This document shows, piece after piece, positions 43,820 through 47,820 of a stretch of DNA of 64,000 nt. The DNA is from Nitrospirota bacterium. GTDB lineage: Bacteria > Nitrospirota > UBA9217. How positions within the stretch are numbered: position 1 is the first letter of the stretch; each line of letters begins with the position of its first letter. The stretch is taken from contig CAVVUN010000015.1 of assembly GCA_963751455.1 (NCBI GenBank), forward strand, positions 1,600,001 to 1,664,000. Direction: 5' to 3'. The notes under the pieces are model-generated. The model ran no database searches, was not told where the DNA came from, and saw only the letters and a program-made list of their open reading frames with translations. The translations under genes and the position numbers were made by a program.

Positions 43820-45295
43820 CTATCCCGGTTCATCGAGCTTCCCGAACGCCTTCAGCACCACTTCGGACAAGGCCGGATGTATATGCATGCCCTTTGCGAC
43901 CGCCCAAAGGTTGTTCTCGCCGGCCATAGCATTCACGACCTCCTGGATCAGTATCGACGCCTGGGGGCCGATAATGTGATAGCCCAGGATCTTCCCGCTC
44001 TTCCGGTGCACGACGGCTTTCGTAAAGCCCTCGGTCTCCATCATTGCTTGTCCGCGGGCAACGTCGCTGTACAGGGCTTTTCCAACCAGGATTTCTTTCT
44101 TCCCCATCAATTTGACGGCCTGCTCTTCTGTCAGTCCGACGGACGCGATCTCCGGATAGGAAAAAACAGCGTGCGGAACGGTCACGTAATTCAGCCGGGA
44201 CTTTTTTCCATGGACGACGTTGTGCCAGACCAGTTCAGCCTCGCGGTTGGCCGTATGCCGGAACATTTTCTTGCCGATGGCGTCGCCGAATGCCCAGATG
44301 TCCTTCTTCGATGTTTCGAAGTATTCGTCGACATGGATATAGCCCCGTTCGTCGGTTTTCACTCCTGTGTTTTCAACGCGCAAAAGATCGGCGTTTGATC
44401 TTCTGCCGGCGGCCACCAGGAGATGGCGGGCGCTTAGTTCGAGTTGCTTTCCGTCCCGCTTCCGGGCGCTGACAATCAGGTTTTTCCCCTCAGTGCGGAC
44501 CTCCACGGCTTCGGTATTAGAATGGACGGACATTCGGCGGGAAAGAGCGGTTTCAAGAAGTTTCGAGACTTCGGGCTCCTCATCGGGCACCAGCCGCGCA
44601 TTGCGCTGCAGGATCGTGACCTTTGTGCCTACAGCCTCGAAGAAGTGGGCAAATTCGGCAGCGATGTAGCCCCCGCCGATGATGATCATGCTGTCCGGCC
44701 GTTCCCGGAGTTCGAGGGCGCTTTCGTTCGTGAGGTACTTCACGGCCTCAATCCCTTTCACTGCGGGGATCGCCGGGCGGGCTCCGCTCGCTATCACGAT
44801 GGTCTTGCCTTTAATGGCGACGGGGTTAACGCCGTTAAAGATTCTCTCTTTATTTTCGGACGGCTTTTCGGCAGATCGCGATGTATTGATGCGCTCGTAC
44901 GATTGGTGCGCATCTTTAACCGGGTGAACTTCGAGCGTATAATCCCCGCTAAAATGAGCTTCACCGAGATAAAAATCGAAGTCATCGGCGTCCTGTAAAG
45001 AGCGTTCAATGTGATCACGGCTCGCTGTGACTTCACTCCTCATGCGTTCCATGATCGCTGCAAAATCTATCTCTTGGATTTCGGCGGTAATGCCGAATTT
45101 TTTAGCTTCGCGTATTTCAACGATTCTATCCGCCGGATAGACCAATAGTTTTGTTGGGATTCAGCCGACGTTGAGGCAGGTGCCTCCCAGCGGTCCCTTG
45201 TCCACAAGGGCCGCGGTTTTCCCATGCGCGAGAGCATCTTCGATTAGGCTTGCACCGCTGCCGCTGCCGATTATGATGACATCGTATTCTTTCAT
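43820..45295 (-). CDS. Class I pyridine nucleotide-disulfide oxidoreductase (Lpd/mycothione reductase-like), probable selenoprotein (Sec45)
   Basis: From ATG 45295: MKEYDVIIIGSGSG..GGTCLNVG-TGA-IPTKLL, continuing in frame with ORF 43820-45145; GGGYIAAE, C-terminal HIHPALSE. Confidence 0.85.
45125..45141 (-). promoter_or_regulatory. Candidate bacterial SECIS hairpin
   Basis: TCTATCC-GGC-GGATAGA, stem starting 20 nt after the in-frame TGA, with G at the first loop position. Confidence 0.55.
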
Positions 45296-45454
45296 CTGAA
45301 GTTCGCCTTTCTTCTTGCATGCACCGTCTCATAGGGGTGGATGCCGGTCCGGGGAACTCTCTCGCCGGTTTTATCTATTGTATCATCTTCGGAAAGAGAG
45401 TCAACTGGAAGGAGTAGACGATTGGAAAAGAACGGTGACAGGCAGAAGAAGAAA

Positions 45455-46638: not shown

Positions 46639-47820
46639 TTGCACGACCATATTATTAAATACACAAAGAAACTGATCCGTGACCGGACGGCTGTTCCCGA
46701 CAGCGTGCGCTTTTACGTCATGGATGATGCGCTGATAACCAACAGGCAGGATGAATGGCTGCCCGTCTTCGCGCGGGTCTTCACCGGTCTGAATATTACA
46801 GCCCTCCTGTTTGCGCGGTCCTCACTTCCCTTTACTGATTTCCTGATCGCGCGGGCTGATCCCGGTATAAACCGGATCATACCGAAGGACACCGAGACGA
46901 AGACCTTTCTGCATGATATTCCGATCGTGAGAAAAACAGAATGGTCAGGGAAAACGAATAACGAAATAGCCGCCATTTTGATGGGCGCTCTCAAGGAGCG
47001 GAAAGCCGTGATGTTGGAGGGACTTGGCGTCGTAGCAGCAGGCGGTGTAACAATCGAACAGGCCTTTAATGTGTACTCGATGATTTTTCACACAACGTTG
47101 ATTAAATACCTGCTCGATCTTCTCCATGACGGCTTCAAACTGCCGGGGGAGCCGGAAGCTTTTAAGGAGTTCAAAAGCACCTGGGTACGTCCAATCCGAA
47201 CGGAAAATCTTCACTTCGCCCCTGGCCGTTTGTCGGAGCCGGGACAGATCGTTGAGGAACTTCATCGTGTAGGAAGATATACGGTAGGGCAGGGATTGGT
47301 CGATTCTTTCTTCGGAAACATCAGTTATTTTGACGGCAAGACGATTTTTATAAGTCAGACCGCTTCTTCTCTGGACGAGTTGGAGGACCATATCGATCCT
47401 GTTCAACTCGACGCTTCTTCCACAGCCGGTATAACAGCTTCATCCGAGCTTCCTGCTCACCGGGCAATTTATCTTTCGACCGGGTGGCGGGCAGTACTGC
47501 ATGGTCATCCGAAATTCAGCGTCATACTCTCAATGCACTGCCGGGAGGAGGACTGCGGCGTCGAGGATTGCGGCAGGGATTGCAAACGCAGACGCTCGGC
47601 GGGAGGCGTGCCAATCGTTTCCGGTGAAATAGGCGCAGGCGGACTGGCCAGGACCGTACCGAAGGCGACCAGCGAGGCGGGCGCCTGCATCGTGTACGGT
47701 CATGGCGTATTTTCGGCCGGAGAGAACGGTTTCCGTGAGGCCTTTATCAGGATGGCCGAGGTCGAGAACCGCTGCCGCGACGAGTATTTCAGGCTTTTTG
47801 AAATAAAGATCACGGCCTGA
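46639..47820 (+). CDS. Class II aldolase/adducin family protein (two-domain)
   Basis: C-terminal domain GNIS..ASSELPAH..LHGHP..GHGV; TTG start; upstream TTGACA-N18-TATAAC. Confidence 0.75.
   Translation: MHDHIIKYTKKLIRDRTAVPDSVRFYVMDDALITNRQDEWLPVFARVFTGLNITALLFARSSLPFTDFLIARADPGINRIIPKDTETKTFLHDIPIVRKTEWSGKTNNEIAAILMGALKERKAVMLEGLGVVAAGGVTIEQAFNVYSMIFHTTLIKYLLDLLHDGFKLPGEPEAFKEFKSTWVRPIRTENLHFAPGRLSEPGQIVEELHRVGRYTVGQGLVDSFFGNISYFDGKTIFISQTASSLDELEDHIDPVQLDASSTAGITASSELPAHRAIYLSTGWRAVLHGHPKFSVILSMHCREEDCGVEDCGRDCKRRRSAGGVPIVSGEIGAGGLARTVPKATSEAGACIVYGHGVFSAGENGFREAFIRMAEVENRCRDEYFRLFEIKITA

Follow-up and report, generated by a model that had tools for sequence, protein, structure and literature searches.

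A predicted selenocysteine in the active-site CxxxxC centre of a mycothione-reductase-like flavoenzyme from Nitrospirota

Does an in-frame TGA at the redox-active centre of a bacterial flavoprotein disulfide reductase mark an error, a dead gene or a codon for selenocysteine (Sec)? The question is raised by a gene on the minus strand of a 64,000-nucleotide stretch of a Nitrospirota genome, hereafter the window, to whose first letter all positions refer unless a genome contig is named. A sequence-only reading had noted that the open reading frame track starts this gene at 45145, that the frame nevertheless reaches back to ATG 45295, and that it contains a GSGSG motif and the segment GGTCLNVG-TGA-IPTK with the TGA as its sole interruption. 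Translation reproduced each of these points: the ORF finder puts the start at TTG 45145, and the frame opens at ATG 45295 and closes at the TAG at 43822-43820 on the minus strand (491 codons, one internal stop), the TGA at 45163-45161 being codon 45 and the second position of the CxxxxC motif. The frame is intact and encodes a flavoenzyme of the glutathione/mycothione-reductase type, with UGA as the second active-site cysteine codon. Its upstream and N-terminal features are as follows, with mycothione reductase abbreviated as Mtr.

43820..45295, minus strand: whole coding sequence when UGA is read through, encoding a 491-aa class-I flavoprotein disulfide reductase (from sequence, homology and a structural model).
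45377..45404, minus strand: sigma-70-like promoter match, TTGACT-16-TG-TACAAT, 10/12; weak, as 3 such matches were found against 1.5 expected.
45306..45310, minus strand: AAAGG, candidate ribosome-binding site 10 nt before ATG 45295 (from sequence only).
45254..45268, minus strand: GSGSG FAD-binding loop, residues 10-14, a mycothione-reductase-type variant.
45176..45178, minus strand: TGC for Cys40, the substrate-facing cysteine, which aligns with Mtr Cys39 and is Cys in 91/91 family rows.
45161..45163, minus strand: in-frame TGA, codon 45, a predicted flavin-proximal selenocysteine that aligns with Mtr Cys44.

The second Cys of CxxxxC is the flavin-proximal one in this enzyme family. Existing annotation cuts the gene short: the protein collection entry (P0300) is a 441-aa truncation only, missing the two catalytic residues as well as the FAD loop, and a Sec orthologue (HUI67742.1) is deposited as a truncated 378-aa 'FAD-dependent oxidoreductase'. 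No U was present in the stored database proteins, a result of little weight since U is possibly converted on storage.

When 401 genomes of the phylum were scanned for the pattern, the TGA form turned up in 26: the present genome and 25 of its 63 family relatives, together spanning 15 genera. It was found in none of the 337 phylum genomes outside the family, and a TAA or TAG version of the same codon in none of the 401. The fetched loci contain 107 distinct genes with the motif; 23 carry TGA, 84 carry TGC/TGT and none carries another stop, which is the alternation of Cys and TGA among homologues that the sequence-only reading had suggested looking for; at the first cysteine position, by comparison, no homologue-search match has a stop codon. 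None of the 23 TGA genes has a further internal stop, and across 22 TGA orthologues the 44 codons preceding the TGA keep a mean amino-acid identity of 77% at a third-base identity of ~50%.

The TGA could in principle stem from faulty sequencing or from a nonsense mutation, the gene then encoding an ordinary Cys enzyme or being a pseudogene. Assembly errors do exist in this genome (the selD frameshift described below is one), and background TGA occurs: of 90 TGA hits in a metagenome scan, 60 belong to the present subfamily and 22 to PRK06370-type oxidoreductases, and the other 8 are scattered lipoamide-dehydrogenase-like genes with no common hairpin, some of them otherwise broken. However, the identical codon and the hairpin that follows it recur in 26 genomes, 15 genera and 60 metagenome stretches with frames otherwise intact and with TAA/TAG in 0/401, and the window copy itself carries hairpin codons seen in no Cys orthologue, which leaves this explanation very improbable. 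Genome-wide reassignment of UGA, e.g. to Trp, under which codon 45 would not be a special recoding site, is scarcely credible: the Trp codons of the 23 TGA genes are TGG in 69/69 cases, 10 of the 21 complete TGA genes use TGA as their terminal stop, and every non-TGA homologue has Cys in the codon-45 column. Taken together, the conserved TGA, the intact frames, the TGG-only Trp codons and the preserved upstream codons argue that error, pseudogene and reassignment are excluded in practice.

The sequence-only reading had also described a 7-bp hairpin with a G-led loop beginning 20 nt downstream of the TGA, a description that is exact.

45125..45141, minus strand: predicted bacterial SECIS element, 7-bp stem and GGC triloop, within codons V52-R57 (comparative evidence).

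The hairpin (TCTATCC-GGC-GGATAGA, 45141-45125) has its first base 20 nt and its GGC loop 26 nt past the TGA. The consensus model of the bacterial SECIS, as set out in PMC13188914, has a stem of 4-16 bp, a loop of 3-9 nt lying 16-37 nt from the UGA, a G among the first two loop bases and a free energy of -7.5 kcal/mol or lower. The window hairpin agrees with the stem, loop, G and spacing rules; folded alone it reaches -6.7 kcal/mol and so misses the energy limit, and segments of 54-60 nt reach -11.3 to -11.6 kcal/mol with a competing fold (z = -1.5 for the 54-nt segment, whose minimum free energy fold competes with the hairpin). Moreover, 127 of the 2267 TGA triplets of the window are followed by an equally good hairpin, and 207 of 5000 synonymous recodings match its energy. 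Taken alone, the hairpin is not significant beyond chance by folding energy.

Its weight comes instead from being conserved together with the TGA: the hairpin core is present in 22/23 TGA genes vs. 0/45 Cys orthologues, and in 0/25 of the Cys orthologues that share the YP[AG]DR peptide. It is likewise present in 43/43 distinct metagenome sequences of the present subfamily. The TGA genes fix TAT (23/23), CCG (23/23) and AGA/AGG (23/23), whereas the Cys genes use all synonymous codons, and 98.7% of stem cells pair across 53 sequences vs. 29-58% when the alignment is slid; covariation is limited to the outer pair (UA/UG/CG) in 3 related sequences. Since Sec and Cys forms are intermingled in the phylogeny (see below), the link between hairpin and TGA is not one inherited block, though kin are not independent. 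Both the geometry, which fits the consensus model, and the way in which the hairpin tracks the TGA are consistent with the SECIS role proposed for it at the outset.

Selenocysteine insertion further calls for a dedicated apparatus, and the genes whose presence the sequence-only reading had proposed to check were all found: selA and selB, which are adjacent, a Sec-type selD and a tRNA-Sec all score over their cut-offs in the present genome (G000). The selD gene (G000:C2:129959-130880) has an in-frame TGA of its own and is split by a frameshift in the present assembly; its SECIS-like element is of the same design (8-bp stem, GUC triloop, 34 nt after its TGA). Matches to tRNA-Sec occur in 55/64 family genomes and in 32/32 of the high-quality ones. 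Among the first 24 relatives, 4 of the 16 TGA carriers lacked a detected selA, and the same 4 a detected selB (G002, G006, G017 and G019; 89%, 96%, 63% and 86% complete, respectively). G002 and G006 do have a Sec-type selD, and G006 also a tRNA-Sec; in G019, at its 86% completeness, none of selA, selB, selD and tRNA-Sec was found, and G185, a 99% complete genome from the genus of G002 and G019, has selA, selD and tRNA-Sec. The selA gene is also present in six relatives with a Cys-form enzyme, so that the Cys form does not require the machinery to have been lost.

The present genome holds a second tRNA with a UCA anticodon (C13:3951-4041, minus strand), which comes immediately after genes for a TusA-domain protein and a tandem rhodanese; it has G1-C72 and U73, whereas the tRNA-Sec on C1 has G73. 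Second-copy tRNAs fetched from relatives (L305-L314) keep UCA and U73 in 10/10 cases. These features match the selC*-type tRNA-Cys(UCA) of Mukai et al. (PMC5389517), who describe selC* tRNA-Cys species, some from Nitrospirae, that have U73 and a GCA or UCA anticodon, and who show opal suppression in E. coli by a deltaproteobacterial selC* tRNA. UGA45 might then be read mainly or partly as Cys, giving a Sec/Cys mixture governed by selenium supply, or mostly Cys. Yet many TGA carriers have a single tRNA-Sec-family match only; G000 has only one selB and one cysS, with no extra copy found, and cysteinylation of the C13 tRNA is a prediction; and the contig carrying this tRNA is 9 kb long and contains frameshifts, the genome as a whole having 5.4% contamination. 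That the hairpin is fixed in TGA genes alone speaks for SelB-dependent decoding, and a gene needing only Cys would not retain both a UGA and a hairpin. We therefore consider a main or partial reading as Cys improbable, while back-up Cys insertion at UGA45 is possible. Decoding of UGA45 as Sec, which the sequence-only reading had put forward and which the conserved TGA, the linked hairpin and the Sec machinery all support, is by contrast very probable. As a separate observation on the tRNA complement, ARAGORN predicts, at G000:C2:525275-525348, a tRNA-Ser(act) of 74 bases that has no long variable arm.

Phylogeny indicates how the two forms are related. A FastTree phylogeny of 133 rows, from which the hairpin-encoding columns were removed and which includes the PRK06370 subfamily and two scattered hits, gave 17 Sec/Cys changes, at least 10 of them forced by well-supported branches. 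An IQ-TREE phylogeny of 34 rows hand-chosen from these 133 gave 10 changes, 7 of them forced, and the AU test rejected a single Sec clade (p-AU 5e-9). On these trees the predicted Sec forms and the Cys forms are interleaved. As one hairpin is common to nearly all Sec forms, a single gain of Sec with repeated reversions is the simplest history; the likeliest reading of the sequences, for a tree whose root is not fixed, is that Sec would be ancestral in the family, with repeated returns to Cys accompanied by hairpin loss. The archaeal orthologues fetched are all Cys forms. A divergent TGA carrier without the hairpin core (L078:4133-4183), whose genome has selA, possibly represents a separate SECIS and a separate gain. 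Some family genomes also contain a second paralogue (~50% identical; L036, L040, L038 and L039) in both TGA-plus-hairpin and Cys forms; G013 has the TGA form twice, and G023 combines a TGA with a Cys paralogue.

To what kind of enzyme, then, does the predicted Sec belong? Three further stretches of the protein bear on this.

43862..43879, minus strand: His473-Pro-x-x-x-Glu478 acid/base pair, with no later C-terminal Cys or Sec.
44594..44677, minus strand: pyridine-nucleotide site with GGGYIA (207-212), Gln230-Arg231 and Arg234, and no acidic residue.
44828..44923, minus strand: ~32-residue insertion, approximately residues 125-156, of lower model confidence.

An AlphaFold model with Cys put at position 45 had a pLDDT of 95.5, and the best match in both sequence and fold was Mtr (PDB 8qcj; E 4e-85, TM 0.87, 36% identity). 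The marks of class I are present throughout, namely the FAD loop, the N-terminal CxxxxC centre (with Sec as the second Cys), the NAD(P)H domain, the His-Glu pair, the interface domain and the fold. The assignment to the flavoprotein disulfide reductases thus stood, since motifs and fold fit, while the grouping was refined to mycothione-reductase-like and not lipoamide dehydrogenase. With Mtr the window protein shares the GSGSG loop, the CxxxxC position, the His-Glu pair (His473/Glu478 align with Mtr His442/Glu447) and the equivalent of Arg199; it differs in having UGA at Cys44, Pro at Arg205 and the ~32-aa insertion, and it scores far below the Mtr cut-offs. The insertion occurs in a minority of orthologues, in Sec and Cys types alike; it is ~27-38 residues long, polar and variable, follows the fifth strand and is seen also in L016 and L053 (a Sec and a Cys relative). 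One clade of orthologues (L023, L024, L030, L143, L173 and L206) has a short histidine-rich C-terminal tail.

The Arg231 column is Arg in 87/91 family rows, the genome's two lipoamide dehydrogenases have Glu where the window protein has Gln230-Arg231, and judged by its sequence the enzyme probably uses NADPH. One of the two arginines that bind the 2'-phosphate in Mtr, Arg205, aligns with Pro237, and therefore the preference for NADPH is not certain.

No NCBIfam model reaches its cut-off for the window protein. The nearest is NF004947 (cut-off 592), on which it scores 575.6 with its insertion, and four orthologues score 598 (the Sec relative L044), 618, 600 and 586. Several named families were considered and rejected: lipoamide dehydrogenase (E3; TIGR01350, 352 vs. 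408.8, with Gln230-Arg231 in place of Glu); mycothione reductase itself (TIGR03452 and NF005884, 376 vs. 635.65 and 411 vs. 501, with no MshC over cut-off in the host); mercuric reductase (TIGR02053, 335 vs. 454), as there is no Cys after residue 40 and MerA has a C-terminal Cys pair; and high-Mr thioredoxin reductase, as the protein ends KLDEPG at the TAG, without a C-terminal Cys-Sec arm.

The 22 metagenome hits of PRK06370 type are FAD oxidoreductases in which TGA takes the place of the same second Cys (e.g. L203:213-1589 and L201:2887-4254, both plus strand, and L149, L176, L178, L186 and L195). The two that were scored both exceed the NF004992 cut-off; these proteins are ~33% identical to the window protein and form a separate branch. 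Several of the TGA forms recur across samples, and the database proteins nearest to them are truncated. Hairpins of -6 kcal/mol or lower follow 9/18 TGA forms vs. 9/23 Cys controls (p = 0.13), one hairpin being found in Cys forms as well, and among 301 genomes of another phylum 0/25 matches had a stop; no TGA-carrying genome was found. Beyond the recurrence of the TGA, a Sec in PRK06370 is unsupported, and we treat it as a lead.

The surroundings of the gene gave no pointer to a substrate. Its conserved locus comprises addAB, degP and a class II aldolase gene in divergent orientation and an outer-membrane beta-barrel gene, typA or lpd-gcvH in convergent orientation, and no conserved co-oriented partner gene was present among the relatives' loci listed; few relatives have a PAP2 gene like the one upstream of the window reductase. 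The divergent neighbour at 46639-47820 (plus strand), found in many relatives, encodes 393 residues, with a class II aldolase domain in the C-terminal part and no domain assigned to the N-terminal half. That no 2-oxoacid dehydrogenase genes are adjacent, as first read from the window, was borne out, and no gene with the E2 domain was found genome-wide or in 20 of 24 relatives.

These observations bear on whether the enzyme, with its Sec decoded, might be a lipoamide dehydrogenase working with lipoylated GcvH. The nearest NCBIfam model (NF004947) is indeed named dihydrolipoyl dehydrogenase, with the Sec relative L044 above its cut-off and the window protein below it, and several relatives have a lipoamide dehydrogenase gene and gcvH just downstream on the opposite strand. 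But the TIGR01350 score falls short, the acidic residue of an NADH site is missing, E2 was not found in G000 or in those 20/24 relatives, and lipoamide dehydrogenase is encoded separately by two other genes of the genome, one adjoining gcvH and one scoring 528 on TIGR01350, from both of which the window enzyme lies far in the tree. We consider this reading rather unlikely. As an aside, the lipoamide dehydrogenase gene and gcvH of G000 follow directly after rnf-like genes (G000:C1:260247-265877), in a genome in which no E2 was found, and the order lpd-gcvH-rnfB is seen also in relatives L053 and L055.

Preferring the mycothione-reductase-like assignment, we infer a stand-alone NADPH-linked reductase that would reduce a small disulfide through a Cys40-Sec45 selenenylsulfide. 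GshB, BshC and GCS2 ligase were not found in 25 family genomes, and no MshC was over cut-off in the present one. Since these markers of glutathione, bacillithiol and mycothiol synthesis were not found, another small disulfide is likely, and a small soluble disulfide of none of these thiols, e.g. cystine or CoA disulfide, is the substrate that we slightly favor; lipoate or lipoyl-GcvH would be a minor possibility, a non-disulfide oxidant, as for RclA, a somewhat smaller one, and a redoxin protein the smallest of the four.

In Mtr, the N-terminal Cys attacks the substrate and FAD passes electrons to the proximal Cys (PMC10910545). By analogy with the mechanism of the family, NADPH would reduce FAD, which would open the Cys40-Sec45 selenenylsulfide at the flavin-proximal Sec; Cys40 would then attack the substrate disulfide, with a proton moved by His473-Glu478 of the other subunit; and the Sec45 selenolate would attack Cys40, releasing the second thiol and re-forming the S-Se bond. 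Selenium would be fully ionised and a better nucleophile and leaving group beside the flavin, and it might resist oxidative inactivation. We regard the proposed mechanism as a whole as highly probable, its substrate being uncertain.

How does this enzyme compare with known systems? Its closest counterparts are the Cys-type NF004947 orthologues of Nitrospirota and archaea (the nearest 66-77% identical), which have the same motifs and, in many relatives, the same locus, but which carry TGC/TGT without a hairpin; their source names are dihydrolipoyl dehydrogenase or mycothione reductase, and no experimental characterisation of this Cys clade was found in the literature searched. The mammalian high-Mr thioredoxin reductase is a selenoenzyme of the same superfamily that also uses a selenenylsulfide, but there the Sec is carried by a C-terminal arm, and the N-terminal pair, Cys59/Cys64, contains only sulfur (PMC10779653), whereas the window protein has its predicted Sec in the N-terminal pair and no arm. 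The E. coli hypothiocyanite reductase RclA (PMC9335216; the window protein scores 223 vs. 740 on its model) and the haloarchaeal bis-gamma-glutamylcystine reductase (PMC7278568) are, like the window protein, stand-alone enzymes of this superfamily with no C-terminal redox center, and these sources describe them with Cys or make no mention of Sec. The haloarchaeal enzyme was once misannotated in databases, and by analogy the database names of the present family may likewise be misannotations.

Two flavoprotein families in a 2026 catalogue of 119 selenoprotein families, a Sec CoA-disulfide-reductase-like protein (TIGR03385, UGxP) and a type III sulfide:quinone reductase (HxxU), are, like the window protein, predicted bacterial FAD-dependent selenoproteins, but families and motifs differ (the window protein scores 82 vs. 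a cut-off of 458 on the CoA disulfide reductase model NF007123); a CxxxxU flavoprotein disulfide reductase is absent from the table that lists them (PMC13188914, Table 1). By term search, the main texts of deep-Sep (PMC12013277), BSepDB (PMC13326102) and SelCysML (PMC13745706) yielded no dihydrolipoamide or pyridine-nucleotide disulfide reductase, and no selenium form at the flavin-proximal position was found in the literature covered, a scope outside which most subscription journals fell. The gene very probably encodes a Sec enzyme whose form the 119-family catalogue lacks and which gene callers truncate. A broader picture, which joins a selenolate as the flavin's direct redox partner, repeated Sec/Cys flips, a possible switch involving a selC* tRNA and a possible second origin in PRK06370, is offered tentatively, with somewhat less than even confidence.

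The predicted Sec would replace the flavin-proximal Cys, unlike that of thioredoxin reductase, which sits away from the flavin, and the close natural Sec/Cys pairs, ~70-77% identical, lay the question of selenium vs. sulfur open to direct spectroscopy of the flavin charge-transfer state. If the assignment is true, the family would offer ready-made matched pairs on the role of selenium at the flavin-proximal site and would add a selenoprotein family missed by annotation, and its substrate may point to the thiol buffer used where synthesis markers for glutathione, bacillithiol and mycothiol were not detected, as in this lineage.
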